Of a stretch of DNA of 64,000 bases, positions 25,544 through 41,418 are shown in pieces (the first letter of the stretch is position 1; each line of letters opens with the position of its first letter). A model generated the notes under the pieces. It saw only the letters and a list, made by a program, of their open reading frames with translations, did no database searches and was not told the origin of the DNA. A program made the translations under genes and the position numbers. The stretch lies in the sequence record SRR20825019_97. One strand, 5' to 3'.

Positions 25544-27295
25544 TCATTGCGACTCTGAGTTCAGGGATGCGGCAAGACTGGAGACAAGAGCCCGAAGACG
25601 GTTAGGCTTTACTGGCTTGTTCAGAATGGGCAGATACTGTGTACTGATTAGCCTTCGCGTTTCATCGCTGCGGTCCGCAGTAATGATGGCCGCCGGGATG
25701 TCACGACCGAAGTGTCTGCGTACGGCATACACCGCCTGACAGCCGGTCAGGTTCTCATCCAGGTGAAAGTCCGCGAGGATGATGTCTGCGCCGCCGCAAT
25801 GCGCCACAGCCTCAACCGCACTACCCGCCGTGGTGACCACGCAACCCCAACGCTCCAGCAGGGCCTGCATGCTTTCCTGTACCGGCTCTTCATTGTCGAT
25901 CACCAGAACACGAAGCCCATCGAAGGACACAGGTGCAATTGGTGGCGGCTCCGCATTTTGACTACTGGCAGTCGCCTCAGTGAACCGGGCCAGAGGAACA
26001 AGAATACTGAAACAGGAGCCTTTGCCGTGATGTGAACCCACGTGGATTTCGCAGGCCAGTATCCTTGCCATGCGTTCGACAATTGCCAGCCCCAGGCCCA
26101 CACCCTGGCGACCGCCACCCTTGGGCAGTATCTGGTGAAATTCCCGGAAGATGTCCTCGAGCTTTTCCTGCTCAATGCCCACACCGGTGTCCCACACCCC
26201 AATTTCCAGATTGGGACCACGCTTGCGGGCCGCAAACAGCACACCGCCTTCACGGGTATAGCGAAACGCGTTGCTCAACAGGTTGCGGAGTATCCGGGTT
26301 AGCATTCGCGGGTCAGTGCTTACGTAGCCTGTCCCCAAGCGCACCCGAAAGTGCAGCTTTGCGTTCTCAGCCACCGGTTCAAATTCCTGCGCCAGCCCTC
26401 TCATCAGTTCGCCAATATCAGTATTGACGATATCTGGCCGCATGGCTTTCTGATCCAGCTTGGATATATCCAGGAGATCCGCCAACAGGTCCTCAGCGCT
26501 CTCCAGGGACCTCCACACACGCTGGACAAGTCGGTTTTCATCCGCTGGCAGATCACTGTCTATCAGGGCGGACACCAGTAACCTGGCCGCATTCAGGGGT
26601 TGCAGCAAATCATGACTGGCCGCCGCAAGGTATTTGTCCTTACTCTCATTGGCTTCCTTGGCCGCCTCTACAGCCACAACCAGCTCCCGCTCCACTCTTT
26701 CACGCTGCTCGATCTGGTATCTCAGCACGACGTTGGCGTTCTGCAGCTCTTCAGTGCGCTCCTCCACACGGCGTTCCAGATCCGCATTAAGCTGGCGAAG
26801 TTTTTCCCGCGCCTGGTGTCGCTCGGTGATGTCCGCCACAAAAGCTTCAACCACTTCGGGGCCCAAATCGGGACGCCGCAACAGGGTTATCGCAACTTGC
26901 ACCGGCGTATTATCCGCCCGTCTGAGCCGGGTTTCCCTTGCACTGAGACTGCCGTTATCCAGTAACTCCTGGCGGATGGCGTCAAACTCACCAGAACTGC
27001 AAAACAGCTGCTCACGAAGGCGGATAACCCCCGTGATCAGGGCTTCAGAGCTTTCATAGCCGCAGATCCGGGCCATGGCCGGGTTGGCGGCCACAAAGCC
27101 GCCCCGGAGGTTAGCCTGAAAGATGCCGTGAAGGGCATTCTCGAACAGCCACTTGTAGCGATTACGCTCCTTCTCCAGTTCGTCGATCCGCTCCTGCAGC
27201 GCCGGGTAGTAGTTCTTTCTTACCGACTGGCTGCCAAGGCCAAGCAGGTCACCGATGTCGTAGTCGGCGTTGCTGGAGTCAGAGGGCTTCTTCAT
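25544..27295 (-). CDS. ercS: PAS-domain hybrid sensor kinase/response regulator (ErcS/NahK family)
   Basis: LLGLG..SVRKNYYP N-terminus, PAS, H-box AASHDLLQPL, HATPase, C-terminal receiver; overlaps the ercA stop. Confidence 0.85.
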   Translation of the reverse strand: MKKPSDSSNADYDIGDLLGLGSQSVRKNYYPALQERIDELEKERNRYKWLFENALHGIFQANLRGGFVAANPAMARICGYESSEALITGVIRLREQLFCSSGEFDAIRQELLDNGSLSARETRLRRADNTPVQVAITLLRRPDLGPEVVEAFVADITERHQAREKLRQLNADLERRVEERTEELQNANVVLRYQIEQRERVERELVVAVEAAKEANESKDKYLAAASHDLLQPLNAARLLVSALIDSDLPADENRLVQRVWRSLESAEDLLADLLDISKLDQKAMRPDIVNTDIGELMRGLAQEFEPVAENAKLHFRVRLGTGYVSTDPRMLTRILRNLLSNAFRYTREGGVLFAARKRGPNLEIGVWDTGVGIEQEKLEDIFREFHQILPKGGGRQGVGLGLAIVERMARILACEIHVGSHHGKGSCFSILVPLARFTEATASSQNAEPPPIAPVSFDGLRVLVIDNEEPVQESMQALLERWGCVVTTAGSAVEAVAHCGGADIILADFHLDENLTGCQAVYAVRRHFGRDIPAAIITADRSDETRRLISTQYLPILNKPVKPNRLRALVSSLAASLNSESQ

Positions 27296-28442
27296 AAACC
27301 ACTTCGACGTCACGGCGGGAAGACTTGCGAGGATTGGTCAGGATGCATGGATCCTGCAATGCAAAGCCGGACAGGTAGGGTATGTCAGACGTGGTCACAC
27401 CCAGTTTGCCAAGCTTGGCCTCCAACCCTACAGCTTGTTTCAACGTGATAATTCGCGCCATCAGGCGCTGTTTGATGACCGGTTTTGACATACCGCGGGT
27501 GTCGATATCCATGGCCTCCGCCACGCGCCGGAACCGGTCCTCTGCCGACGTGTAGTTGTACGCTACAACGTGTTCCAGCAGCAGGGCGTTGCAAAGGCCA
27601 TGGGGCAAATCAAGGTAGCCACCGAGACTATGGGACATGGCGTGCACCGCCCCCAGGATGGCATTGGAAAACGCCAGGCCGGCCTGCATGGACGCCAGCA
27701 TGATCTGCTCCCGAAGGTGCACATTGGCGGTGTTCAGCACCAGCGGCTCCAGATGGCGGTTGATCAGCCGGATGGCTTCCAGGGCGTTGGTGTCCGTCAG
27801 CGGCCCGCTACCAGTGGAGACATAGGCTTCAATGGCGTGCACCATGGCGTCCACCCCGGTACAGGCCGTCAGGTAGGCGTCCATGGTTTCCGTCACTTCC
27901 GGGTCGATCAGCGACACATCCGGCACCACCGCCTTGCTAATGATGGAGAACTTGAAGCGCCGGCTGGGGTCGGAAATGATCGCGAACTGGGAGACATCGG
28001 CGGATGTCCCCGCCGTGGTGGGAATCAGGATCATCGGGGGCGAGGGCGAAGCAATGGTGTCCACACCCTCAAAATCAAGAATGTTCCGGCCATGGGCACT
28101 GACAATGCCGATACCCTTGGCGCAGTCCATGGGGCTGCCGCCGCCGATGGCGACAATCACGTCACATTGGCTGGACTTATACAATTCAGCCCCGGCCATG
28201 ACTTCGTCCACTTTCGGATTGGCTGAGACGCCGGTAAATACCGTGACACGGAGACCCGCCGCCACCAGGATATCCATGATTTCCGCAACCCAGCCGGCTT
28301 TCTCCACGCCAGGGTCAGATACCAGGAACACATGTCGAGCACCAAAGTTACTGGCGAAGTTGGCTACTGCCTTGCGTGAGCCGGCACCAAAGATGATCTC
28401 GGGGGACACAAACTTGCGCAGGGAGGAAATGTCGTAGCTCAT
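27279..28442 (-). CDS. ercA: Iron-containing alcohol dehydrogenase-like regulator ErcA
   Basis: LRKFVSPEIIFG, GGGSPMD, PTTAGT, HAMSH...HG; directly upstream of ercS in a PQQ-ADH cluster. Confidence 0.88.
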   Translation of the reverse strand: MSYDISSLRKFVSPEIIFGAGSRKAVANFASNFGARHVFLVSDPGVEKAGWVAEIMDILVAAGLRVTVFTGVSANPKVDEVMAGAELYKSSQCDVIVAIGGGSPMDCAKGIGIVSAHGRNILDFEGVDTIASPSPPMILIPTTAGTSADVSQFAIISDPSRRFKFSIISKAVVPDVSLIDPEVTETMDAYLTACTGVDAMVHAIEAYVSTGSGPLTDTNALEAIRLINRHLEPLVLNTANVHLREQIMLASMQAGLAFSNAILGAVHAMSHSLGGYLDLPHGLCNALLLEHVVAYNYTSAEDRFRRVAEAMDIDTRGMSKPVIKQRLMARIITLKQAVGLEAKLGKLGVTTSDIPYLSGFALQDPCILTNPRKSSRRDVEVVYEEAL

Positions 28443-28563
28443 GTAAGGTCTCGCCATTATGTCGTTGTTATTATGTCTCACCCGGAGTTTAACCCAACCC
28501 GGGTGCCTTCTCATCTGGTTCCTCATCCTGAGACCTGTGCCGGGATTTTCGGCACCCAAACAG

Positions 28564-28580
28564 CGTAGGATGTTCCTACA
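28564..28580. promoter_or_regulatory. Palindromic regulator site upstream of the two-component operon
   Basis: CGTAGGA-tgt-TCCTACA, resembling the palindrome at 36413-36429; TATTAT -10 candidate at 28602-28607. Confidence 0.55.
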
Positions 28581-28642
28581 TTCGGGTCGATACCCGATTG
28601 ATATTATCGCTCGGCCAACCTGTCTCCAAGGATCCAGCTCAC

Positions 28643-30076
28643 ATGTCCGCTGATCAACCACATCGGGTACTTCTCAGGTACGACCGAGAAGACGATCGGG
28701 ATGCTTTTCTCCAGGATTTTGCCGGGGCATTTTCAATTGACAGCTACTCCTCTGACCAAGAGGCCCTGGCCGCCATTGCACGGGGCCGATCCCTGCCCGA
28801 CGCGCTCGTATTCATCACCACCGACACCGATCAGTTGCTGACGTCTTCTCTACTTCAGCAGGTCAGCGATGGTGGCTGCTGCTTGCGAATCGTCATTGGC
28901 GGCCAGTTTTCCCTCGATCAGATCATTCACTTGCTGGAGAATAGGGTTGTCGACCGCTGCTACGCCAAGCCTTGGGACATCAACCTCGTACGCACCGACC
29001 TGTTTGCAGCCACCATGTCGGTACAGGATAACGCCGGGCCCACTCCCGTCGAGAGCGGACACCCCAAGCCGCTGGTACTGATCGTTGACGACGAACAATC
29101 GGCGACCAAGTACCTGAGCAAACAGCTGATGCGGATGCAGGACCGCTTCGAAACCCGCTGCGCCGCCAGCGCTCAGCAGGCTTTGGAGACTCTCCATCAG
29201 GAAGGTCACCGGACTGCAGTCCTGATGACAGATCAGCGCATGCCAGGCATGAAAGGACTGCAGTTGATCAACGAGATGCGACAGTCCTATCCCCATATTA
29301 CTCGCATCCTCACATCGGCCTACGGGGAACTGGACGTTGCGCTGGGCGCGGTTAACCAGGGGCGAATCTTCCGTTATCAGAAGAAGCCGTGGCATGCCGC
29401 ATCCCTGCTCCCGGTGCTGGACGACGCTATTGCTCAGCACCACGCATCGCGCCAGAAATCGGAGCAGTGGCAATTTGCACTTGCTGAGCGTTTCGAGGGC
29501 GTTCGCGAACGGCGAAAAGCCGCTCTTCTCAGGGCTCTGACCGAATCGCCATCAGTTCCCTGGGCGTCACGGGACGTGATACAGAATTTCCTGAGGGATA
29601 TGGACGCCATCAGCACCTTGCCTCCCGGCGCCTCCCACTTTCGTGACCATAGCCCTGAGGCTCTGGATAACGCTCTGGTCCGCGGGCTACGCGCCGAACT
29701 GACTCGGTATTTGGAGATACCGTTAACCGACGCCGTTCCCAGCAACGGTACCCTGCCCGACGCCATTCAGTCAGCGCTGGATGTGCTGTTGAGCGCGTCC
29801 GGAATGAGCCGTGACCACCTCATAAGTGAGCAGGATGAGGACGTCACGACCCTTCGGCTGGAAGCCGGAAAGAACCTCCACCTATACAGTCATGTCCTTT
29901 CGCCAATGGCGCGTGTTTCCAGCCAATTACTGAAGCAACAGGGCGCCTTGCTTGCGCTCTACATCATGGCCCAACAACAGGGCGGCCAAGTTCTCCTTCA
30001 GGGAGGCCAACAACGCTTCACCCTTGAGCTGTCGTTGCCTCTGCGCGCGCCCTCGGGCGGGAGCCGGCAGCCGTGA
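28643..30076 (+). CDS. Response regulator-like protein: degenerate receiver, intact receiver, unknown C-terminal domain
   Basis: Second receiver VLIVDDE...MTDQRMPG...ILTSAY...KKPW; the first domain keeps only a YAKPW-like remnant. Confidence 0.8.
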   Translation: MSADQPHRVLLRYDREDDRDAFLQDFAGAFSIDSYSSDQEALAAIARGRSLPDALVFITTDTDQLLTSSLLQQVSDGGCCLRIVIGGQFSLDQIIHLLENRVVDRCYAKPWDINLVRTDLFAATMSVQDNAGPTPVESGHPKPLVLIVDDEQSATKYLSKQLMRMQDRFETRCAASAQQALETLHQEGHRTAVLMTDQRMPGMKGLQLINEMRQSYPHITRILTSAYGELDVALGAVNQGRIFRYQKKPWHAASLLPVLDDAIAQHHASRQKSEQWQFALAERFEGVRERRKAALLRALTESPSVPWASRDVIQNFLRDMDAISTLPPGASHFRDHSPEALDNALVRGLRAELTRYLEIPLTDAVPSNGTLPDAIQSALDVLLSASGMSRDHLISEQDEDVTTLRLEAGKNLHLYSHVLSPMARVSSQLLKQQGALLALYIMAQQQGGQVLLQGGQQRFTLELSLPLRAPSGGSRQP

Positions 30077-30720
30077 CAAAAGATGATATCCGGCTGTACG
30101 TCACCATCGACAAGCGCCTGTACCGGGACGCCATCCTCTATCAGCTGCTTCTCGAAGAGAACATTGATCTGGTGGGCGAGTCCGCAACCGGTGTCGATAC
30201 ATTGGAGCAGTTGCCGACCGTCAGGCCTACCGTGCTGATCATTGAGGAAGCCCTGCAGGACAACGATGGCCTGACCATCGCCGAAGTGGCCCTTTCCAAT
30301 CACCCCGCGCTGTCTGTGCTACTGCTGGTCGAGCGACCGGTCTCTCCAGCCCGCCTGGCGATCTATCTGGAGTCAGGCATCAAAACGGTTGTGGCCAAGA
30401 CTCAGTCAGTACAGGAACTCATTCGATCCCTGCACTACATTCGCAACGGGCAAGTGTATGTGGACGCGGACTCGTGCCAGGCACCCGCTACCACAACATC
30501 ACCAGATCTGGAGGCGTTTCACGCGCTATCTGCCCGTGAACGGGAAGTGGCACGCCTCATGGCGGATCGGGTCGCGTTCAAGACCATTGCGGATCGACTC
30601 GGGGTTTCCTATAAAACAGTGCACTCCTACAAGGACCGAATATTCATCAAGATGGGCTTTGAACGGCAACCGGATCTGATGCTGTTCATGAAACGCTTCA
30701 GGAACAATCTCGACTCATGA
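30073..30720 (+). CDS. NarL/LuxR-family regulator with atypical receiver
   Basis: HTH LSAREREV...IADRLGVSYKTVHSYK; receiver reads VLIIEE where the phospho-Asp is expected; GTG start overlaps the upstream stop. Confidence 0.85.
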   Translation: MTKDDIRLYVTIDKRLYRDAILYQLLLEENIDLVGESATGVDTLEQLPTVRPTVLIIEEALQDNDGLTIAEVALSNHPALSVLLLVERPVSPARLAIYLESGIKTVVAKTQSVQELIRSLHYIRNGQVYVDADSCQAPATTTSPDLEAFHALSAREREVARLMADRVAFKTIADRLGVSYKTVHSYKDRIFIKMGFERQPDLMLFMKRFRNNLDS

Positions 30721-32093
30721 AAATACTCGACGGCCTGAAACAGGTTCAGCAACTTACTCCGCGCAAGCAACGACAGTTCGAGCGTTTCTACAGCGCCCAA
30801 TCCCGGTTCCGTTTCCTGCCGGTCTTTGCGGACGTCTCGCTGCTAATCACACTGATCGGAACCCTTGCGCACATGATGACGCTGGCCACACAGCTTGGCC
30901 CTGCCAACGTTCCGAGCGGACTGTTTGTCTACACCACGATTCTCTCCTGTCTCATTGTGGCCCACCGATTCAAGGCCGTGCGTTTTCGCACGCCACTGAT
31001 CATGTATCTGGTTTTCCTGAACATGGCCCTGTTCAGCTATCTTGCCTTTATCAAAACCGGTGGAGATCTCACACCGACGATCGGGCTCTACTTCTTCATC
31101 AGCTTCCTCGGCATCGTGACACTGTCGCCACGGCATACCCTGATCATGATCGCCATCAATCTGGCGTTTCTCTACGCCGCTACCTGGGCCGCGGTACCCG
31201 CAGCGGATGTGGCAACCAAGCTACAGGAAGTGTTGTTGAACTGGCTGGTTCTGATGTGCCTGGTCATTTCACCGTTGTTAGCCGTTTTTTTTCGTCGCTT
31301 CGTGCGAAACATCCTGGCGCTGCAGTTCCTGTTGCGCGACAGAAACCGGATGTTGAGCCGCACTCTGCGAACGCTTCAGGTGACTGAGGAAAACCTGATC
31401 CAGCAACAGAAGCATCAGGCCCTCAGTCACATGGCCAAGGGCCTGCTCCATGAAATCATGAATCCGGTCAACTGCTCCGTGCAGGCGCTGCAGTACGCAA
31501 AGGATATCAACGAAGACCCCGAACTGGGCGAAGCGATCGACGATGCCGCGGCGCATCAGAAACGCATTGCCGACATCGTCTCGGACCTTATCGATTTCTC
31601 TGTCCCTCATCCGGAGCACGCCAAAGAACTGGCAAACCTCACGGGGCTTATCAATGCCGCCACGCGCTTCACCAAACACAAACTGCGCGGCATTGACCTG
31701 GAGATCGACGTACCGGAAACCCTAACAGTACCTTGCTACCCTTCGGCGCTGACTCAGGTGTTCGTGAATCTGTTTCTCAATGCTGCCTCGGCGCTTCAGA
31801 GCCAACTGGATCGTCAGCCCGCCATCATTCATGTGTCGACGACTCGCGATGCCCGGACCCTTGATATCACACTGGCCGATAATGGCTGCGGCATTCCCGA
31901 GGAGGAGATACGTCGCCTGACGGATCCTTTCTATTCGACCAGTGACACACCGGAAAACCTCGGGCTGGGCCTTAGCATTTGCCAGACCATCCTGCGCCAC
32001 CACGGTGGGACACTGTCGATTAGCAGTGCGCTGGGGCAATGGACGCGGGTGACACTGGCGCTGCCCCTGGAGGCCGATCGCGTCAGAACCTGA
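30717..32093 (+). CDS. Membrane sensor histidine kinase
   Basis: About 6 TM segments, H-box LLHEIMNP, QVFVNLFLNA, DNGCGI, PFYST, GLGLSI. Confidence 0.92.
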   Translation: MKILDGLKQVQQLTPRKQRQFERFYSAQSRFRFLPVFADVSLLITLIGTLAHMMTLATQLGPANVPSGLFVYTTILSCLIVAHRFKAVRFRTPLIMYLVFLNMALFSYLAFIKTGGDLTPTIGLYFFISFLGIVTLSPRHTLIMIAINLAFLYAATWAAVPAADVATKLQEVLLNWLVLMCLVISPLLAVFFRRFVRNILALQFLLRDRNRMLSRTLRTLQVTEENLIQQQKHQALSHMAKGLLHEIMNPVNCSVQALQYAKDINEDPELGEAIDDAAAHQKRIADIVSDLIDFSVPHPEHAKELANLTGLINAATRFTKHKLRGIDLEIDVPETLTVPCYPSALTQVFVNLFLNAASALQSQLDRQPAIIHVSTTRDARTLDITLADNGCGIPEEEIRRLTDPFYSTSDTPENLGLGLSICQTILRHHGGTLSISSALGQWTRVTLALPLEADRVRT

Positions 32094-33204
32094 GCTGGGC
32101 ACGCACGGTGACCGCATCCCCATCGGGGTTTGCCATCAAAGCATTGCCGCTGATGGTCGGAATCAGGTAATTCACCCTCAGCAGAACCGATTTACGCCAA
32201 TAATAGTTGATCCCCAGCATCGCTATGGAGGCTTCGGCGCCCACATCCCGCTGCCTGAGATCCACCCCGCTCCAGCGCGCCACCAGTTCGACGGCACCCA
32301 GATGGCTGAGCGGGTCAATGCGGTCAAACTCGCCTCGGCTATACCCCCGGTGTTCGCCCGTGAGCAGGTAGCCCAGCTGGGCATAACCGCCAGTGAATTG
32401 CCATTCGTCGCCCCCAACCTGCCTGACACGCTGGGTCATCGCCTCCGATGTGACGGTGACTGAATCGCGACTCCAGGCAAACTCGCCACCCAACAGTGCC
32501 AGGTCATCCGCGTCAAAACGCGGGCTTCGGATCACATTGTCGGCGCTGTAGACCTCCCCATGATCGCGTATCTGGAACCGTTCGCCGCGCATGTCACGCC
32601 AGGATCCGGCCAGGCCCAGATGGATTGTCTGATGTTCAGTGTGAAGCGGGGCAAAGGTCACGCGGCCCGTTACCGCCCTGGGAGCCTGGGAATCGCCACT
32701 TTCCCGAAATACGCCCAGTGCCCAGGTGGCCTTTTTACCGGCCCGGTTTACCATCACGCCTTCGGAGCGCCCCGGCGCAAAGGCGCTGGTCGCCAGGGAG
32801 CGTTCGTTGGTCATCAGGCTGGAATAGCCACTGGTACGTTCAAAACCAAAAGGCTCTTTCATCCGACCCACCTGGACGCCACCCCAGCCAAAGCCATCGT
32901 ATCGCAACCAGACGTCATCGAATTCCAGTACCTGCTCATCACCGTCGTACTGATAGTCACCATCAAGCTCGAAGGACCAGTGTTTGCCATAGGCAAGTTC
33001 AAGTCCGAGCCTGAATTTCCGCAGTACCGTGTTCGTGGTCGAGTCAACGCCATCTTCGTCATGGAAAGCGCCATAATGGTCCACACCGCCCACCACGTAG
33101 CCGCCGATGTCGGCCTCAAAATCAGTGGTGTCTGCATGCACCTGCAGGGAAAAGCAGGCCGTCAGCCACATCACCAGCATTGCCCAGCGCAGATCGCCCA
33201 TCAT
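32083..33204 (-). CDS. OprO/OprP-family phosphate-selective porin
   Basis: Signal peptide, GRMKEPFGFE...ERSL, GGYAQLGYLLTGEHR.Y, GAVELVARW, GINYY, C-terminal Phe. Confidence 0.85.
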   Translation of the reverse strand: MMGDLRWAMLVMWLTACFSLQVHADTTDFEADIGGYVVGGVDHYGAFHDEDGVDSTTNTVLRKFRLGLELAYGKHWSFELDGDYQYDGDEQVLEFDDVWLRYDGFGWGGVQVGRMKEPFGFERTSGYSSLMTNERSLATSAFAPGRSEGVMVNRAGKKATWALGVFRESGDSQAPRAVTGRVTFAPLHTEHQTIHLGLAGSWRDMRGERFQIRDHGEVYSADNVIRSPRFDADDLALLGGEFAWSRDSVTVTSEAMTQRVRQVGGDEWQFTGGYAQLGYLLTGEHRGYSRGEFDRIDPLSHLGAVELVARWSGVDLRQRDVGAEASIAMLGINYYWRKSVLLRVNYLIPTISGNALMANPDGDAVTVRAQLRF

Positions 33205-33779
33205 GATCCCTGCTCCATGCGGTAATGCATCCTTAGCTGCGCTGTATCCCGCAGAAAGCTTACGGAAACCACATCCACCCGATTCACATCCAGGCCAGTC
33301 CGAGATCGCAGGTCGGCAATCAGTTCGTCCTGACGGTCGGTGTGAATCAGGTCAATTTTTTCGTACTCGATGTCCTTCTCGCCGCACAATGGCAACATCA
33401 TCCGGGTTTCCAGCAACAAGGCGATGGCGATCACCAGGCCATTCAGGCACGCCAACACCCAATGCTCCACGTTCCCGACGGCCGCCAACAGCGCCATGGC
33501 GATCACCAGAAACAGATAGGTCATTTCCTTGATACCCAATGCTTCGGTGCGGTATCGCAACATCGAGAACACCGCGAACAACCCAAAGGCGAAACCCATG
33601 GACACGGTCACCGAATTCAGTAACGCCGTGACCAGGAACACACCCACGCCAAACAGGATGAACGAGGCGGCGTTTTCACGATGGTGGGAAAATGCGTAGT
33701 AACAACGGATCAGGATGAAAACCGAGATCAGGTTAATGATCAGGCGGATAAAGAAATGGACATCAACTGCAGATTCCAT
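33201..33779 (-). CDS. DUF4956 membrane protein
   Basis: SMGFAFGLFAVFSMLRYRTE...KEMTYLF, ADLRSRTGL. Confidence 0.88.
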   Translation of the reverse strand: MESAVDVHFFIRLIINLISVFILIRCYYAFSHHRENAASFILFGVGVFLVTALLNSVTVSMGFAFGLFAVFSMLRYRTEALGIKEMTYLFLVIAMALLAAVGNVEHWVLACLNGLVIAIALLLETRMMLPLCGEKDIEYEKIDLIHTDRQDELIADLRSRTGLDVNRVDVVSVSFLRDTAQLRMHYRMEQGS

Positions 33780-34561
33780 GATGACTCCTTGAAGTAGCGG
33801 TATTCTCTCGGGGCCCTGAGCGCATCAAGCTTCGACAACACTGGCTTGAAGCGGTTGGCCTTGATCCGGCCCCGGCACAGCAGCGCCGTTCCGATGCAGT
33901 ATTTGCTGAAGCTGACGGGCCTGTGGCCCATCCTTTTCAGGATGTCCAGAACGGGTGAACGCCGCTGATGGCGCAACGATTTGACCTCCACCAACACAAC
34001 GCCCGGCAACCCGATCCGCCGGTGTTCCCCGCTATGCTCGAAGCAGATATCCGTATCCACGGTAACCCGCTCGTGACCGGTTCTGCTGAGCAGCGTGATG
34101 CGATGGTAGTGAACAAAAAGAGCCGGCAGCATCCGTGTCGCCGGCAGGCCCAGTTGCTCTTGAAGGAAGTGGTGCAGGGTTCGTGCGTCTGGCTCCGCCC
34201 CGGTCAATACCATTCTCTGTTTGGAGGTGCGCAGTTTGTTGGTCTTGACCTTGACCTCCAGAAAACGCTCACCGGTGGCCCGGTAGTGGCGAGTGCGGAC
34301 CTTTACGCGGTTCAGTTTGCCATTGTGGTGATCGAGGTAGAGCTGCCGGCCGGGCGTATCGAAATAGAGCGTGTCGTATGCCATTCCCCGACACCCGTTC
34401 ATCTCCAGCACCGTGTACTCTGCCGTCAGCTCTGCCAGACACTGGTTCAGTTCGGCAGCGTCGATCAGATACTTGGTATCCACCCGATCCATCAACGCTG
34501 ACGAGCTCTGATCCGCCAGTGAGTGGGATTCAAATGCGTTCAGGCTGAAACAACTGGCCAT
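33740..34561 (-). CDS. VTC-domain (polyphosphate polymerase / TTM fold) protein
   Basis: RVDTKY, TLYFDT, KVRTRHY, FLEVK, YHRITL, ERVTVD, LVEVK, FSKY; TAATG coupling to the CotH gene. Confidence 0.9.
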   Translation of the reverse strand: MASCFSLNAFESHSLADQSSSALMDRVDTKYLIDAAELNQCLAELTAEYTVLEMNGCRGMAYDTLYFDTPGRQLYLDHHNGKLNRVKVRTRHYRATGERFLEVKVKTNKLRTSKQRMVLTGAEPDARTLHHFLQEQLGLPATRMLPALFVHYHRITLLSRTGHERVTVDTDICFEHSGEHRRIGLPGVVLVEVKSLRHQRRSPVLDILKRMGHRPVSFSKYCIGTALLCRGRIKANRFKPVLSKLDALRAPREYRYFKESSWNLQLMSISLSA

Positions 34562-36333
34562 TATTCAGTACCCGGCAGGTATTCCATGGTCATGTCGATG
34601 TCCATATCCACATCGCCGGCGTTTGCGCCGCTGCCTACGCTGTTGAGGGTGATGGTGCCGGTCGCCCCCAGCGCCAGTGACACCACGTCGCCAGGTACGG
34701 ATTCATCCACTTCAAAGAGCAACGCATTGGTGGCAAAGCCATGGAGCTTATGGGTTCCGGGTATGTAATCGGTGTCTTCGATAAATACCTGCAACACATA
34801 AGGCTTGAAGCCCTGGGCGGCGTCGACACCAATCAGCAGCAAACTGTGCACGGCGGGAGCCAGCTCGGTGTCAACGGAGTACACCAGGCTGTCTACTTCA
34901 AAGGCAGCGAACGTCAGGCTCGCGCTGACCTGTCGACCATCCGGCAAGGTGAAACTGAATACTCCGGAGTCTGTGCCGGATACCGCTGAAACACTGGCGG
35001 TCAGATTGGTGGTGGCTGGCTCGGAGCAGTCCGGCTGGGTATCCTCCAGCAAGGTCACCGCCTCTTCCGGCTCGTTTCCGGCGATGGCGCTGAGCAACAC
35101 CTCCCGTTGCGATCGCTCATACCCGTCGTCTCCGGGCATGCCGGTGCCAAGCAGGAAGCTTTCAACACTTTCAACGTCGGCCTCCGTGGTCCCAGTCAAC
35201 GCCATCACCCGCTCGATCTCCAGCTGCATCGCTTCTTCGTCCCAGTGGTTGGCCAACAGGTCTTCCAGCGCGTCCAGGTATTGCTGGCGGTATTCCGGCA
35301 TCCCATAAAGCCGCTCCGCCAGACGGAAGTTACGGTACAGAGGCGCGGAGCCAGGCTTCAGGGGATGGGTTCCACGAAAGGCGGTATCGGCACCCCAGGG
35401 GATGAAGTGGAACAGCCCATCGTCCGGAGAATGGTAGAGGTAAAAGTTATTGGCGTTGCCGCTCGCCGAATCCCACGCTCCCAGCAAGGTTTCCATGGCC
35501 CAGAAACGGATGAACTCATCCACATCCAGCAATTGGGGCAACACGTCCATCATCGCCTCATCATCCAGCGCCATGGCGTCCGCAACGGCTTGCAGATCAG
35601 AGCGGTTGTTGGCGTCTTCGTTGGTCTTGGTCTCGAACCGGCGGATCAGATAGTTGCCGAAATCGGCCTGCTGCGCCTCATACAGATTGCCCGAGTCATC
35701 GCCAAACGTGCGCCGCAAAAAGGGCTTCCGTATAGGTTCAACATGGGCAAAAACCCCCAAATCCTCGCCATTGACGGTCACCTGGGCGTAGTTGCATAAC
35801 GGCGCTGCGATACCGATATCCCGGAACCGGTCGTAAGCCAGGCATTGACGAACATTGGAGGGATCCTGACGATTGTTGTTCAGGGTCATACGGGACACGT
35901 TCTGGTAAGTACGCCCTTCCTGCAGGTCGTTAAAATCCAGTTTCAGGGAAGGCAGGTCCGGGCTGAGTGAACCGATAAAGCCTTTTTTCCGCACGTTCAC
36001 GTTGCCCATGGTATCGCCGTCGATGGTGACGGTGGCGGGCAACTCGGTGTACTCGAACTCGGGCAGGCATTCGCGGGAGGTTTCAGCCAACGTTCGCGCC
36101 TCGGCTTTCAATGTTCTCCAGTTGCTGGCGGACATGGTGATTTCCACGTCGAGCAGGCGCTCCGGGTCAAAAATATCGCCATCACCGCCAATGTTGACCG
36201 GCTCTACCGGTGCGTCAAAATCCGAAGGGCTGGATTCGCTGCTGCTCCCGCCGCCACCGCAGCCGGTCAATACCGCCAGAGCGCCCAGCAGAACGATTGC
36301 CTTTCCCGAAAATCCATCAGTCCTTATTTTCAT
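34561..36333 (-). CDS. CotH-family atypical kinase, lipoprotein
   Basis: Lipobox LTGC plus G/S linker; RKKG...S, SLKLDF, LNN..QDPS, VNGEDLGVF..VE, WDS...NNFYLY, FIPWGAD. Confidence 0.85.
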   Translation of the reverse strand: MKIRTDGFSGKAIVLLGALAVLTGCGGGGSSSESSPSDFDAPVEPVNIGGDGDIFDPERLLDVEITMSASNWRTLKAEARTLAETSRECLPEFEYTELPATVTIDGDTMGNVNVRKKGFIGSLSPDLPSLKLDFNDLQEGRTYQNVSRMTLNNNRQDPSNVRQCLAYDRFRDIGIAAPLCNYAQVTVNGEDLGVFAHVEPIRKPFLRRTFGDDSGNLYEAQQADFGNYLIRRFETKTNEDANNRSDLQAVADAMALDDEAMMDVLPQLLDVDEFIRFWAMETLLGAWDSASGNANNFYLYHSPDDGLFHFIPWGADTAFRGTHPLKPGSAPLYRNFRLAERLYGMPEYRQQYLDALEDLLANHWDEEAMQLEIERVMALTGTTEADVESVESFLLGTGMPGDDGYERSQREVLLSAIAGNEPEEAVTLLEDTQPDCSEPATTNLTASVSAVSGTDSGVFSFTLPDGRQVSASLTFAAFEVDSLVYSVDTELAPAVHSLLLIGVDAAQGFKPYVLQVFIEDTDYIPGTHKLHGFATNALLFEVDESVPGDVVSLALGATGTITLNSVGSGANAGDVDMDIDMTMEYLPGTE

Positions 36334-36412
36334 TGTTTTGTCCCCACATCAGGCCGAATTGGCCGGTTTCTTGTCTGATGGAAGAGTATTGTCGGGGGGA
36401 CTGAAAACTGTA

Positions 36413-36429
36413 TGTAAGACTGTCTTACA
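36413..36429. promoter_or_regulatory. Perfect palindrome upstream of the CotH-VTC operon
   Basis: TGTAAGAC-T-GTCTTACA about 80 bp before the CotH start. Confidence 0.65.
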
Positions 36430-36458
36430 GCGAAACGGGAAAGCGGACAGGCGTCACA

Positions 36459-38249
36459 TTACTGATCGGTCGACTGCCTGCGATAGAACCGAAGCAATCG
36501 TTCCAGCATATCGGCAACGTTGCTCTGCTTGCGAAATCCGTGACCCTCGTCAGGGTACACATACACCTCCGGAGAGCCACCATTGCGACGCAGCGCATTG
36601 ACGATGGCAGTGGTCTGCTGCGGGACCACCACCCGATCCTGCGCACCCTGGAAAAAGATCATCGGTCGACAGAGGCGATCTGCCTGAGCCAGTGGCGACC
36701 TCTGCTGCCAGTTGTCGGGACAGTCGTCGGGAGATCCCAACAACCAGTCCAGATAACCGGATTCAAATCGATGCGTCATCGCTCTCAGCCGCCGGGGATC
36801 ACTGACACCGAACTGGCTGGCGCCCGCCGCAAACACGTCGGTTTGGACCATGGCCAGCAATGCGGTATAACCGCCCGAACTGCGGCCCTGGATGAAAAGC
36901 CTGGCGGGATCAACGGCTTTGTTGTCGACCAGCCAGCGAGCAGCACGTTCCATATCCGCCACGTCCACACGTCCCCAGTTCCCCGCCAACGCCATGCGAA
37001 AGGCCCGGCCGAAGCCAGAACTGCCGCGGTAGTTCACGTCAGCCACGGCAAACCCCTGACGGCACCAGAACTGGGTCTGGAGGTTGAGCACCGGATAGGT
37101 CGTGGAGGTCGGGCCGCCATGGGCAATCAGGATGATTGGTACCGACTTACCATCAGACGCGGATGGCACTGGCGGGTAGAAAAAACCGCTGATGGCATCG
37201 ACACCACCGGCTGATGGCGGAACGCTGAAGAGTTCCGGCTGAGACAATGTCATTCCAGGGAAAGGCTCTTCGCCACCGGAGAGTGGCTCGGCATGTCCGG
37301 TGCCCCAATCGACCGACAACACCGTGTCGAGCCGGGTGGACGAGCGGGCAATACACAGCACCCTCTGGCCTTGCACAACCAGGCATCGAAAGTCGACGTA
37401 CTCCCTTGCGATCCGCACGCCTGTTTCTTCATTCTCTGAACATAACCACAACTGCCCGACTCCGGCCTGGTACCGCACACGTACCCAGCCACCGTCGGGA
37501 AGGCATTGGTGGTGACGCTCGCCCAGTTGCCAGGGGGCGCTGGCATGATCCTCCCGCGTGCCATCCAGCAAGTGCCATTGCCCACTGGACGCCAGTCGCC
37601 ACGGTTGCCACCACCCCTCATGATCCGACAACACAATCACGTCGTCGCCATCAAATATCGGCTGCTGCACACTGCCTTTTGAAGGCGAGGGCCAGCGTCG
37701 CGCCTGGGTCAGTGAGCCGTCCTGCTGAATCGATGCTGTCCAGAGTACGGAGGCAACCCACGGCATATCCGGTAACGACCAGCTCACCCAGGCCAGGTGC
37801 CGCCCGTCGGCCGATACCGCCGGGGCGCTGTAAAAGTCTTCCGACTCGTGGAGTATGCAGTTCGCTGATTCACTGTCCGTTAGGGCAATACCCATCAGTT
37901 GCTGGCGGCCGTTCGCCTCACGCACTGCCAACACCCGGTGATGCGCCGCGTCCCAGGAGAGTCCGCCATAGCAGGCATCGTCGTCAGTGAGTGGAGAGCA
38001 CGCCCCTGTGGCCGTATCAATGTGATAAACCTGCTGCCCGGACGCCTCGACGGCGAATACGCTTTCGGGCCCGGCACACAGCGCACCACCTCCATAACCG
38101 TTAACCTGGCTGCGAGCGCTGAAGCTGCGAGAGAGCAAAGGAATCCCGACACCCGCCTCCAAGGTCATTATCACATTGCCACCACTGACCGGGTCGGACT
38201 CCAGCCAGAATACACCGGTCGCAGATGCCGCTAGCTCTGTACGCTGCAA
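36459..38249 (-). CDS. S9 family serine peptidase downstream of pqqE (PqqH/PqqG-like)
   Basis: HGGPT, NYRGSSGFG, nucleophile GRSSGG, QDRVV, EGHGF; start uncertain. Confidence 0.88.
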   Translation of the reverse strand: MQRTELAASATGVFWLESDPVSGGNVIMTLEAGVGIPLLSRSFSARSQVNGYGGGALCAGPESVFAVEASGQQVYHIDTATGACSPLTDDDACYGGLSWDAAHHRVLAVREANGRQQLMGIALTDSESANCILHESEDFYSAPAVSADGRHLAWVSWSLPDMPWVASVLWTASIQQDGSLTQARRWPSPSKGSVQQPIFDGDDVIVLSDHEGWWQPWRLASSGQWHLLDGTREDHASAPWQLGERHHQCLPDGGWVRVRYQAGVGQLWLCSENEETGVRIAREYVDFRCLVVQGQRVLCIARSSTRLDTVLSVDWGTGHAEPLSGGEEPFPGMTLSQPELFSVPPSAGGVDAISGFFYPPVPSASDGKSVPIILIAHGGPTSTTYPVLNLQTQFWCRQGFAVADVNYRGSSGFGRAFRMALAGNWGRVDVADMERAARWLVDNKAVDPARLFIQGRSSGGYTALLAMVQTDVFAAGASQFGVSDPRRLRAMTHRFESGYLDWLLGSPDDCPDNWQQRSPLAQADRLCRPMIFFQGAQDRVVVPQQTTAIVNALRRNGGSPEVYVYPDEGHGFRKQSNVADMLERLLRFYRRQSTDQ

Positions 38250-38310
38250 AAGCGCCGACGATGCCTGTTCTGACGTCAGCTTTGTCGTTGCATCTGGCTC
38301 ACGGGGCGCA

Positions 38311-39465
38311 TCAGCCCCTGAAGAACAACCGGGAGTTGTTGGCGTTGCGATAGGTCAGCTCCTCCAGCCCGGCGGTGGCATGGTCCGCCGCTTGGCGGGC
38401 GGCGAGGATGCGGTCATGATGGGGTGATTTACTGCAAACCGGGTCGGCGTTGTCGGCATTACCGGTCAGCAGGTAGGCCTGGCATCGGCAGCCGCCGAAA
38501 TCCTTTCCTTTTTCGTCGCAGGACCGGCACGGCTCCGGCATCCAGCTGTCACCCCGGTAATGGTTGAAACCCGGGCTGTCATACCAGATGGAGTGTAGCG
38601 AGGAATCCCGTACATTGGGAAACTCAATGGGTAACAGGCGGGCGCTGTGGCAGGGCAAGGCGGTGCCGTCCGGCGCCACGGTGAGGAACAGGCTGCCCCA
38701 CCCGTTCATGCAGGCCTTTGGCCGCTCCTCGTAATAGTCCGGGGTGACAAAGATCAACCTCATCGCCGAGCCGTCATCTGCCAGACGTTTGCGATAGATG
38801 TTTACTTCGGCCTCAGCCTTTTCCAGCTGTGCCTTGGAGGGCATCAACCCCTCACGGTTTTCGAACGCCCAGCCGTAGTATTGGCAGGTGGCCAACTCCA
38901 CGTAATCCGCACCCAATCGCTCACACAAGCTGATGATATCGTTCATTTGGTGGATATTGTGCCGATGGATCACAAAGTTGAGCACCATGGGGTAACCCGC
39001 TTCTTTTACCGCACGGGCCATCGCCAGCTTCTGCTCGAAAGCCTTGCGTGAGCCGGCCACGGCGTTGTTCAGTTCCGGGTCTGAGGCCTGGAAACTGACC
39101 TGGATATGGTCCAGCCCGGCGTCGCGGAAGGCGTTCACCTTGGCCTCGGTGAGCCCCAGGCCGGAGGTTATCAAATTGGTGTAATAGCCCAGCTGCCTGG
39201 CTTCTGCAATCAGCTCCGGAAGGTCCTGACGCACCAGCGGTTCGCCGCCGGAAAAGCCCAGTTGGGCTGCTCCCATCTCACGGCCCTGGCGCAGCACCCT
39301 GACCCACTCTTCGGTGCTTAATTCCTGCTGGGTCTGCGCGAAATCCAGTGGGTTGGAACAGTAAGGGCACTGCAGTGGACAGCGGTAGGTCAATTCCGCC
39401 AGCAGCCATAGGGGCGGACCAATACCAGGGCGATCGCCCGCCGGCATGGTGTCGTGCTGACTCAT
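38311..39465 (-). CDS. pqqE: PQQ biosynthesis radical SAM protein PqqE
   Basis: [31 protein letters not shown] cysteines ([15 protein letters not shown]). Confidence 0.97.
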
Positions 39466-39737
39466 GGAAACAGTATCCAATGCTGCTGTTCGGCGTCCTT
39501 GAGGAAATCACTGACATCGTTTGCCAGGGATCCCGCATCGGGGAACTGCTGTTCCAGGATAGCGACAATATCGGCCACCGTGCGCTGGCCATCCACTTCC
39601 TTCAGCACCGCCCCGGCGCTGTCGTTCAACCGCACCATACCTTCGGGATACAACAGCACATGGGCGTTCTGGGCCGGCTCCCACTGGAAGCGGAAACCCG
39701 GGCGAAGTCGCGGTGTGCGCTCCATGGGCGTGGCCAC
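39462..39737 (-). CDS. pqqD: PQQ peptide chaperone PqqD
   Basis: FRFQWE...[19 protein letters not shown] start overlapping the pqqC stop (alternative ATG at 39725). Confidence 0.95.
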
Positions 39738-40492
39738 TACACCCCCCGGTGCCAGACTGGCTGGTTGGTTACGGTGTGGTACGGCGGCGTGCGGTGCTGA
39801 TAAGCCATAGTCAGGGCATCCAACATAGACCATAAGATATCCAGTTTGAATTGAAGGATTTCCAGGGCACGGGCCTGCTGTGCCGCGGTGGTAAAGTGAT
39901 CCAGGGTAATCGTCAAACCATGCTCCACGTCACGGCGCGCTTCCGACAGCCGCTTGCGAAAATAGGCATAACCATCGGTCTGGATCCAGGGATAATGCAG
40001 GGGCCAGCTATCGAGCCGGGACTGGTGAATCTCGGGTGCAAACAGCTCCGTCAGGGAGGAACAGGCCGCTTCCTGCCAGGTCGCCCGTCGGGCAAAGTTC
40101 AGGTACGCGTCTACCGCAAACCGCACACCCGGCAGCACGTGGCGCTGGTCGAGGACCTCGTCCCGGGTTAGCCCTACGGCTTCCGCCAGGCTCAGCCAGG
40201 CCTCGATACCGCCTTCGTCGTCACTGTGCCCATCATGATCCAGTACTCTTTGGAGCCACAACCGGCGCACTGAGGCATCCGGGCAGTTGGCCATGATCGC
40301 TGCGTCCTTGCGGGGAATGTTGATCTGATAGTAGTACCGGTTAGCGACCCAGCCACGAATCTGCTCAGGAGTACAATCACCGCCATACATGGCTTTGTGG
40401 TACGGATGGTGGATGTGGTAGTACTGGCCCTTTGCCCGCAGGGCCTGCTCGAAATCCCCGCGATTCATGACAGGTGTAGCGAGTGCGTTCAC
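39737..40492 (-). CDS. pqqC: Pyrroloquinoline-quinone synthase PqqC
   Basis: [36 protein letters not shown]. Confidence 0.97.
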
Positions 40493-41418
40493 GAGGGCAC
40501 CTCCATATCCAGATGCATGCCGTCAAACGACACCTCAATGCCGTGCCTGGCCAGCACGGCCCGTTCCGGAGAGTCTTCGTTGAGAATGGGGTTGGTGTTA
40601 TTGATATGAATAAGGATTTTCCGGCGTGCTGGCATGGTATCCAGCACATCGATCATGCCCCCGGGGCCGCTCTGGGCAAGATGCCCCATTTCCTGACCGG
40701 TACGGGTACCCACCTCGCAGCGCAACATTTCATCGTCGTGCCAAACGGTACCATCCACCAGCAGCGTGTCGGCTTTGCGCATCCACTGCAGAATCTGCTC
40801 ATCGGGCTGCCCGAGCCCCGGGGCGTACATGACGGTTTCACCACTGCGGGTGTCTTCTATGAAAAGCCCAATGTTGTCTCCCGGGTGGGGATTATTCCTG
40901 CGCGGCGAATACGGCGGCGCATTACTGAGTAACGGAATGGCCGTCAACCGCAACGCCGGGGCGCAGGGAATGGAAAAAGACTGTTGATCGGTACAGGGTA
41001 CTTCATGCCACTGGGGGCCACCGCTCCAGTGGGTGAGCATGCGAAACAGTGGAAAGCCGCTGCTCAGATCTTCATGCACCTGGGCGGTACACCACACGTC
41101 CAGGGGCAACCCCTCGCGCAACATCAGCAAACCGGTGGTGTGATCCACCTGGCTGTCGCACAGCAACACCGCGTTAATTCCGGTATCCCGAAGCGCACGC
41201 GCCGGCTGCATGGCATCAAAGCTTGCCAGTTGAGCACGAATGTCAGGAGAGGCGTTGCAGAGAATCCAGTGCACGCCGTCTTCGCTGATGGCAATGGAGG
41301 ACTGGGTACGTGCGCTGGCGTTCAGGGTCCCTTTGCGGAATCCATCACAGTTGGCGCAATTGCAGTTCCATTGGGGAAACCCTCCGCCGGCGGCGGAACC
41401 GAGGATACGAATCTGCAT
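40489..41418 (-). CDS. pqqB: PQQ biosynthesis protein PqqB
   Basis: [32 protein letters not shown]. Confidence 0.97.

Follow-up and report, generated by a model that had tools for sequence, protein, structure and literature searches.

A stretch of 64,000 nucleotides from sequence record SRR20825019_97 (the whole stretch is called the window here) contains, between positions 28643 and 36333, seven genes that very probably form one system. A minus-strand set encoding a CotH-family kinase-like lipoprotein, a VTC-domain protein, a DUF4956 membrane protein and an OprO/OprP-type porin converges on a plus-strand operon for a receiver protein (RR1), a LuxR-type regulator and a histidine kinase (Table 1). 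The region is best explained as a horizontally acquired, self-regulated envelope module. What it does is a more tentative matter: we put at about 40% the probability that it is an inducible system for making polyphosphate at the inner membrane and moving it outward. An earlier sequence-only reading had described the seven genes and proposed such a machine for them; what it observed is confirmed, whereas its interpretation is supported in part only.

Gene coupling, synteny and insertion of the module

The genes of the module are tightly coupled. On the minus strand the cotH and VTC genes meet in a TAATG, the VTC and DUF4956 genes overlap by 40 bp and the DUF4956 and porin genes share an ATGA; the junctions of the plus-strand operon are GTGA and then ATGA, and the 3' ends of both operons overlap by 11 bp. 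The start of RR1 was moved to the ATG at 28643 in place of the TTG that begins the longest open reading frame (ORF). Layout, family assignments and coupled junctions, as first described, are borne out by the ORFs, the Pfam matches and the sequence read at the junctions.

The sequence-only reading held that the four minus-strand genes belong together, which could be checked by the genome-wide co-occurrence of their families, and the families do co-occur. VTC, DUF4956 and CotH were each found in the same six of 61 related genomes (G001, G004, G014, G035, G037 and G045), at adjacent coordinates, and one further genome of the 61 holds a sub-threshold DUF4956 fragment. Among the control genomes, Bacteroides thetaiotaomicron, Corynebacterium glutamicum and Methanosarcina acetivorans have all three families, and Bacillus subtilis has only CotH. 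A profile scan of species genomes for DUF4956 gave 80 loci, mostly from Bacteroidota with some from Gammaproteobacteria and a few others, and in 74 of them a VTC gene lies directly upstream of DUF4956 on the same strand. Two of the six exceptions (L090, L093) have less than 140 bp upstream, and the other four (L037, L073, L094, L098) had room and gave no profile match. The gene that follows DUF4956 encodes an outer-membrane barrel in 52 of the 75 loci with at least 1.2 kb downstream, 41 of these having DUF2490 and 11 Porin_O_P (all seven DUF2490 calls that were spot-checked by Pfam proved right); unlike in the window, the porin slot of the Bacteroidota loci is filled by DUF2490 barrels. No HlyD- or TolC-type gene was found in 10 ORFs from five barrel-less loci. 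The order of all seven genes is kept in seven loci from three genera. Comparison of these neighbourhoods thus points to VTC, DUF4956 and an outer-membrane barrel as the conserved core.

Two side observations were made in these loci. In several Bacteroidota loci an ORF of about 158-160 aa lies directly upstream of VTC (L034:6637-7119, L039:6689-7165, L054:6671-7147, L055:6729-7208, L076:6707-7186); the three that were scanned (L034, L039, L076) match no Pfam family, and the ORF may be a further component there. Locus L047, from a record titled Lachnospiraceae with a Firmicute label, has a clear DUF2490 barrel gene after DUF4956 (Pfam 2e-30), so that the bin carries a wrong label or else the organism possesses an outer membrane.

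The closest homologues of the host organism's genes are from Marinobacter, a marine and non-pathogenic genus, and the whole-genome statements made here rest on G001 and its relatives. With the S9 peptidase beside the module as a probe, an orthologue was detected in 29 of 38 genomes of the genus. G001 aside, there were 28 such loci: in 24 of them a homologue of the Fe-alcohol dehydrogenase (Fe-ADH) follows directly after S9, and in the other four it is absent from the 1.5-kb flank. In G001, as in the window, cotH comes directly after the S9 peptidase gene and the module lies between S9 and Fe-ADH. In G014 and G037 the S9/Fe-ADH pair is adjacent and the module is found about 3.5 kb further on, which places the island at different junctions of one neighbourhood. 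The module is present in only five of 37 genomes of the genus, and the distance of its proteins to other Marinobacter copies is about the same as that to the Hahella copy (CotH 61-68% identity). No terminal repeats were found at the ends of the island. The module is an insertion of about 8 kb, brought in as one block.

The flanks belong to an alcohol-oxidation neighbourhood that is unrelated to the module. On the S9 side (36459-41418) the peptidase gene is followed by genes resembling those for pyrroloquinoline quinone (PQQ) synthesis (radical SAM/SPASM, PqqC-like, metallo-beta-lactamase-like), and the other flank (25544-28456) holds the Fe-ADH gene and a PAS hybrid kinase. In G001 the matches to the S9 peptidase (G001:C1:3612331-3614117) and to the module porin (3617511-3618490) are each spread over two frames. 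Neither gene is disrupted in the window, and the split matches are probably indel errors of a single-contig assembly and not real breaks.

Operators and the signalling trio

Both promoters carry a related palindrome, as had been noticed from the sequence, and these sites are conserved in orthologous loci. The pattern GTARGA-N3-TCYTAC has two matches in the window against 0.09 expected, a number reached in 0 of 100 shuffles. Each of the five whole module-bearing genomes (3.6-4.6 Mb) has exactly two sites, which flank the module about 7.8 kb apart, and a reversed-pattern control gave 0 matches in the same five genomes. The cotH-side palindrome is kept in L021-L024, L026 and L027, and L025 has one diverged half-site; the RR1-side palindrome is kept in L022-L027, which are all six orthologous loci with this promoter in view (that of L021 lies outside it). 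The inverted repeat is thus kept at both promoters despite the diverged surrounding DNA of the Marinobacter, Allohahella and Hahella loci. Since both sites of each genome flank the module and none lies elsewhere in five of five genomes, the regulon appears to be the module itself. The shared operator also bears out the claim that the signalling trio is dedicated to the minus-strand genes. A consensus sigma-70 scan called no promoter at either operator; the spacing between each palindrome and its -10-like hexamer would be the geometry of an activator site that overlaps the -35 region.

The signalling trio itself is syntenic in seven loci. RR1 had been called a double-receiver protein, which is not borne out: Pfam finds one receiver domain, and the N-terminal 145 residues match no Pfam family and show no BLAST similarity to the true receiver of RR1, although their pattern looks receiver-like by eye. 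The receiver proper is canonical, with the acidic pocket, the acceptor Asp and the Lys kept in eight of eight orthologues. The C-terminal part of RR1 (29480-30073, about 200 aa) is conserved across genera without matching a Pfam family, and its end, G-G-x-Q ... L-x-L-x-L-P, resembles by eye the end of a histidine-kinase catalytic domain.

The LuxR regulator has a clear GerE domain (42.4 bits, cut-off 23.5) and matches DevR over its full length (3c3w, E 1.5e-16), and also VraR, EvgA and RcsB. Its Glu58 stands opposite the phospho-acceptor Asp54 of DevR, the acidic pair reads I-D instead of D-D, and the Pfam receiver score of 23 lies below the cut-off of 30.2. Glu occupies the acceptor position in eight of eight orthologues, and the domain is probably an atypical receiver that works independently of phosphorylation. 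In the histidine kinase, HisKA scores 22.2 bits, below its cut-off of 26.9, and the sensor half matches no Pfam family. This arrangement suggests that the kinase signals to RR1 and that RR1 then controls the LuxR regulator by contact; alternatively, the regulator may be permanently "on" and governed by its own level.

RNA contigs over the module come from four RNA libraries of three studies. Those of X15 and X16 are 8-23 kb long and span the convergent operons, which rules them out as single transcripts, and they may include DNA. In X17, a seawater metatranscriptome, there are pieces of 250-460 nt on the porin, DUF4956, VTC and cotH genes at a depth of 3-11. Together the contigs are at most a weak hint that the module is expressed.

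Table 1. Features of the island, with positions in the window
Feature	Position	Strand	Remarks
Whole island	28457..36458		DNA between the Fe-alcohol-dehydrogenase gene and the S9 peptidase gene
Palindrome GTAGGA-TGT-TCCTAC, operator-like	28565..28579		Upstream of the regulator operon
-10-like hexamer TATTAT (putative)	28602..28607	+	22 nt past the palindrome; counterparts TAATCT/TAGTAT in orthologous loci
Receiver protein RR1, 477 aa	28643..30076	+	Pfam Response_reg 5e-16; family-less N-terminal part, intact receiver domain, family-less C-terminal domain of about 200 aa
NarL/LuxR-type DNA-binding regulator, 215 aa	30073..30720	+	Pfam GerE 5.5e-11; atypical receiver, Glu58 at the acceptor position
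Membrane histidine kinase, 458 aa	30717..32093	+	Pfam HATPase_c 2.9e-21; multi-pass N-terminal half, HisKA-like H-box
OprO/OprP-family outer-membrane porin, 373 aa, signal peptide	32083..33204	-	Pfam Porin_O_P 1.6e-40
DUF4956 inner-membrane protein, 192 aa, five predicted helices and C-terminal alpha/beta domain	33201..33779	-	Pfam 1.2e-47
Stand-alone VTC-domain protein, 273 aa, triphosphate-tunnel fold, predicted cytoplasmic	33740..34561	-	Pfam VTC 6.3e-29
CotH-family kinase-like lipoprotein, 590 aa, family-less C-terminal region of about 200 aa	34561..36333	-	Pfam CotH 2e-40
-10-like hexamer AATACT (putative)	36385..36390	-	23 nt past the palindrome; (A/G)ATACT kept at the same place in L021-L027
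Palindrome GTAAGA-CAG-TCTTAC, operator-like	36414..36428		Upstream of cotH

The envelope proteins and their known relatives

The VTC protein matches Pfam PF09359 with 101.6 bits against a cut-off of 23, over profile positions 2-234 of 235, and has no signal and no membrane segment. In a Foldseek search with its AlphaFold2 model (predicted local distance difference test, pLDDT, 87.8) the best matches are yeast Vtc4 chains (E 7.6e-14 to 1e-12; 3g3r_B with E 7.6e-14 and a TM value of 0.62), followed by Vtc2 and Escherichia coli YgiF at 4e-11 and by other tunnel enzymes at about 1e-7; sequence similarity in the Foldseek alignments is very low (18-20%). As modelled, the protein has its nearest structural counterpart in the polyphosphate polymerase Vtc4 of yeast, and the original assignment to VTC stands. 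Throughout 51 VTC homologues from several phyla 27 residues are invariant, most of them Arg, Lys, Asp or Glu; they include R26, K30, R85, K87, R89, R91, K104, K114, R116, R154 and K194 as well as the acidic D28, D68, E102, E164, D169 and E192. When model and alignment are combined, the invariant charged residues alternate along the strands of the barrel, the pattern expected of a tunnel lining.

The window protein shares the Pfam VTC tunnel fold with the eukaryotic VTC complex (Vtc4/Vtc3 or Vtc2/Vtc1; PDB 3g3q, 3g3r, 7ytj, 8i6v), and it has a genetic tie to a small multi-pass membrane protein, where in yeast such a protein is a fused part of the enzyme. By contrast, it consists of the VTC domain only, without SPX and without the fused three-helix DUF202 domain, and its membrane partner is DUF4956 and not DUF202. 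DUF202 was not found in G001, G004 and G014, and a search for longer or fused VTC relatives, which is weak evidence, found none. In the relevant part of a 2023 review VTC is treated as eukaryotic, and bacterial polyphosphate synthesis is ascribed to PPK enzymes (PMC10657179). PPK1 is present in all five module genomes, so that the island is an addition to ordinary polyphosphate metabolism and not the housekeeping route.

DUF4956 is the most conserved protein of the module, with 72-79% identity to the window copy in L021-L027 and 55% in L028 and L029; the corresponding values are 43-55% in L021-L027 and 39-55% across L021-L029 for VTC, and 35-55% for the porin. Its AlphaFold2 model (pLDDT 87.4) shows five helices and a small beta-alpha-beta-beta domain. 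The basic residues 32-34 and 75-84 suggest, by the positive-inside rule, that the N-terminus is outside and the C-terminal domain cytoplasmic. A cytoplasmic C-terminus also fits a database protein (P0313) in which DUF4956 is followed by a lipoprotein-type signal and then by CotH. All 52 sequences compared have R75 and R77, which lie at the predicted cytoplasmic mouth, and R12, N16 and R25 of helix 1 and N113 are kept in 62-75%. Conserved Arg and Asn residues of this kind would be expected of a path for anions.

The porin scores 139.9 bits against Pfam PF07396 (cut-off 20.9) and matches OprP (2o4v, E 1.8e-15) and OprO (4rjw, E 6.3e-14) over its full length, in agreement with the OprO/P-type assignment made from the sequence. 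In three of the five module genomes (G004, G035 and G037) no second Porin_O_P member was found, and G001 and G014 have Porin_O_P paralogues elsewhere in the genome. The module porin is set apart from OprP and OprO of Pseudomonas by its place in a VTC/DUF4956 operon under a dedicated regulator, which is not a recognised phosphate-starvation context.

CotH scores 139.7 bits against Pfam PF08757 (cut-off 23.8) and matches CotH of Bacillus cereus (5jd9, E 9.6e-21). Residues 1-25 form a lipoprotein-type signal that ends in L-T-G-C with Cys25, and this lipobox bears out the lipid-anchored CotH of the sequence-only reading, although the Pfam LPAM_1 match is weak and below the cut-off (E 0.14). Cys motifs were found by pattern match in five of the seven closest orthologues, L021 has A-I-Q-G-C, and by a crude test about 20 of 31 linked CotH ORFs have a signal-like N-terminus. 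In the Bacteroidota locus L050 (1791-6773) the CotH protein has a lamin-tail domain and a tail for type-IX secretion, and before it come two further type-IX-secreted proteins, of which one is arylsulfotransferase-like. Judged from these N-termini and from the secretion tail, CotH appears to be exported wherever it was examined.

Changing either D228 or D251 is reported to inactivate CotH of B. subtilis (PMC7821199). Their spacing of 23 residues suggests that in 5jd9 they correspond to the Asp within N-F-D-G and, in P-W-D-Y-D, to the earlier of its two Asp residues. The window protein retains the catalytic Asp (A-W-D) and likewise the Asn after it (N-N-F-Y-L-Y-H), which were set against N-F-D and H-N-Y-A-L-Y-H of 5jd9 after a 3-residue gap had been shifted, and both residues are conserved in the family alignment. 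It thus shares the Pfam family and these two residues with the Bacillus spore-coat kinase (5jd9/5jda). It differs in being exported as a lipoprotein, whereas the Bacillus protein acts in the mother cell, and in an extra C-terminal region of about 200 aa.

Polyphosphate export and its alternatives

In the reading that we prefer, a signal would act on the membrane kinase, which would phosphorylate the intact receiver of RR1, and RR1 would in turn control the LuxR-type regulator, itself presumably not phosphorylatable in the usual way. By binding GTARGA-N3-TCYTAC at both promoters, the regulator would raise its own operon and switch on the genes for CotH, VTC, DUF4956 and the porin. The VTC-like enzyme would then polymerise phosphate from ATP at the membrane, DUF4956 would take the growing chain across the inner membrane, the OprO/P-type porin would let (poly)phosphate cross the outer membrane, and the envelope-anchored CotH would act on or with polyphosphate. 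That polyphosphate is the phosphoryl donor of CotH is speculative and unlikely. What the analysis shows is how the genes are coupled and co-occur, how the island is built, that the operator is conserved and unique to it, and which folds and residues the proteins have; polymerase activity, translocation, the substrate of the porin, the reaction of CotH and the direction of flow are all inferred.

Several results weigh against this reading. A Foldseek search with the DUF4956 model returned nothing at E <= 0.001, and VIA-align wide gave generic helical matches only, the best being archaeal virus coat proteins with Z 10.7; VTC chains are not among the listed fold matches, and the ESM Atlas gave no usable match. 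A comparison by hhalign of DUF4956 (52 sequences) with DUF202, for which only a thin profile of 4 sequences was at hand, gave a probability of 0.45%, that is, no detectable homology. The claim of the sequence-only reading that DUF4956 is a channel is therefore not borne out, as no fold match stands out and no homology to DUF202 is detectable; if DUF4956 works like the VTC channel, it would do so by analogy. No fused VTC-DUF4956 protein was found either: a scan of the 10 longest DUF4956 representatives gave fusions to DUF2490 (3) and CotH (1) and none to VTC, and even these fusions may be gene-calling merges, because each second part begins with its own signal peptide. A complex prediction for DUF4956 and VTC, run without alignments, scored 0.00 and has no weight in either direction. 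On the side of the enzyme, the triphosphatase YgiF trails Vtc4 only narrowly as a fold match. The VTC sequence profile gets no further than a weak match (E 0.002-0.01) to the inactive paralogue Vtc2, so that the catalytic or polymerase-specific residues of Vtc4 cannot be mapped by sequence; a search of the literature found no enzyme activity for any bacterial VTC-domain protein. Furthermore, porins are passive, and porins and channels work in both directions, so that the porin gives no information on the direction of flow.

The part of CotH is weakened as well. Of the 53 loci with 4 kb on both sides, 29 have a CotH kinase domain no more than 8 kb away (31 of 80 overall), and the Shewanella genome with a CotH-less locus has one CotH gene elsewhere. 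Among 61 genomes of a second order, sampled around an Emticicia genome, 10 have DUF4956 and 17 have CotH; CotH occurs in eight of the 10 genomes with DUF4956 and in nine of the 51 without it, which speaks against an obligatory link between polyphosphate and CotH. Since CotH is absent from two of the 10 DUF4956 genomes and present in nine of the 51 others, it is frequent but not obligatory, and by these counts seems strongly associated with the core while being neither necessary to it nor exclusive. In addition, the window CotH has P-W-G-A-D, with a Gly at the presumed position of the metal-binding Asp D251, by which it also differs from the Bacillus kinase, and an Asp two residues later. W-G-[AT]-D is found in the window and in all nine gammaproteobacterial copies (L021-L029); in the remaining linked CotH copies that could be aligned, an aromatic residue is followed by Asp, mostly as W-D-x-N. 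In the window protein the neighbouring Asp may take over, metal or donor may be bound in another way, or activity may be lost.

The linkage has already been published, and the sequence-only reading was right that it comes without a functional description. Whitfield et al. (10.1101/768473) describe a group of cotH, "poly-phosphate polymerase" and DUF4956 (/DUF4832) genes as accessory to Gram-positive pel loci, and the same set is discussed for Streptococcus intermedius SIR_1594-1592, in a paper whose authors guessed at a polyphosphate that remains in the cytoplasm (10.1101/2024.04.20.589940); neither paper, in the sections that deal with the cassette, tests a function for it (10.1101/768473, 10.1101/2024.04.20.589940). 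The literature search found no functional study and no Gram-negative version with porin and dedicated regulator. As described there, the Gram-positive cassette resembles the module in that the same three families are contiguous, with CotH predicted to be secreted, the VTC-like protein cytoplasmic and DUF4956 multi-pass with an ACT-like tail. The window differs in its flanks of PQQ, alcohol-dehydrogenase and peptidase genes, and it adds the OprO/P porin, a three-gene signalling circuit with its own operator and a lipoprotein CotH with W-G-A-D. No DUF4832 or Pel family was found among 20 window proteins scanned; pel genes elsewhere in the genome were not searched for.

Polyphosphate export has two main rivals: external polyphosphate may be taken up, or the tunnel enzyme may have a role that involves no transport. 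Phosphate and pyrophosphate are taken up through OprO and OprP, and the module porin, homologous to both porins and the sole member of its family found in three module genomes, could likewise admit external pyro- or polyphosphate, which DUF4956 would carry inward and the tunnel enzyme would degrade or convert in reverse (polyphosphate and ADP to ATP), as a way of scavenging algal or particulate polyphosphate. The close fold of YgiF-type hydrolases and the bidirectionality of porins and channels are consistent with such a route. We nevertheless consider it unlikely, as control of the operon lies with a two-component circuit and an operator of its own, with no recognised phosphate-starvation element among those looked at, the exported kinase-like lipoprotein would have no obvious role, and the Gram-positive versions stand in exopolysaccharide (pel) loci, which points outward (10.1101/768473). 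If, instead, no polymer is transported at all, the VTC-like protein would be either a soluble tri- or polyphosphatase or a tunnel enzyme that acts on nucleotides, DUF4956 a membrane sensor or regulator acting through its ACT-like C-terminal domain, and CotH an ATP-dependent kinase that works before export or on leaked ATP. The tunnel superfamily consists mostly of hydrolases and cyclases, many of which match the VTC model at E of about 1e-7; the C-terminal domain of DUF4956 has weak ACT-like matches only (TyrA, AcuB; E about 0.1-0.4), and the fold searches showed nothing channel-like. Against this, the order and overlap of VTC and DUF4956 in 74 of 80 loci and the barrel in 52 of 75 are hard to explain without a cargo that crosses the envelope, and the margin of the Pfam VTC match (101.6 against 23 bits) and the invariant Arg residues at the predicted cytoplasmic mouth of DUF4956 also make a role without transport improbable.

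There is a rather slim chance that polyphosphate is exported as a matrix or cation-binding surface polymer and that CotH of this clade is a non-catalytic binder or anchor, that is, a pseudokinase. Pel polysaccharide is cationic and would pair with an anionic polymer. The Gram-positive cassette stands beside Pel polysaccharide genes (10.1101/768473), W-G-[AT]-D replaces W-D-x-[ND] in L021-L029 and the window, and CotH is dispensable in some DUF4956 genomes. However, the catalytic Asp and the Asn of N-x-Y-L-Y are kept, the conserved Asp two residues past the Gly is found in the W-D-Y-D of Bacillus too, and the CotH domain is under clear constraint, with 61-68% identity across genera. It would take a great deal, finally, for the seven genes to be chance neighbours with unrelated jobs. 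Each family is also found alone somewhere, CotH occurs without DUF4956 in the second order, and G001 and G014 have further Porin_O_P genes; yet starts and stops overlap, the same six of 61 genomes carry three of the families, the seven-gene order recurs in seven loci of three genera, the shared operator occurs only at the module, and the module was inserted as one block, so that chance is highly improbable.

New here are the insertion at S9/Fe-ADH, the synteny of VTC, DUF4956 and a barrel across phyla, the frequent but dispensable CotH, the Vtc4-like fold, the lack of detectable kinship between DUF4956 and the channel of yeast VTC, the Gly of CotH and the Glu of the LuxR regulator, the linkage itself being already known. 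The furthest-reaching form of the preferred reading is a bacterial VTC-like machine, with a membrane part analogous and not homologous to that of yeast, in which polyphosphate made from cytoplasmic ATP passes through DUF4956 and a barrel, brings phosphoanhydride energy to the ATP-free envelope and there replaces ATP as phosphoryl donor of exported CotH-type kinases, here as a mobile, signal-inducible island. We regard this form as doubtful. A VTC-type enzyme of bacteria that is tied to a membrane protein and a pore of the outer membrane would give them a second, vectorial polyphosphate route besides PPK, and there would be an answer to how exported kinases are powered where ATP is absent; it would also bear on biofilm matrices, given the Gram-positive cassette in pel loci, and on marine phosphorus cycling. 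As a clean 8-kb insertion with its own switch and a single-purpose operator, the island offers a test bed that can be turned on or moved as a unit.

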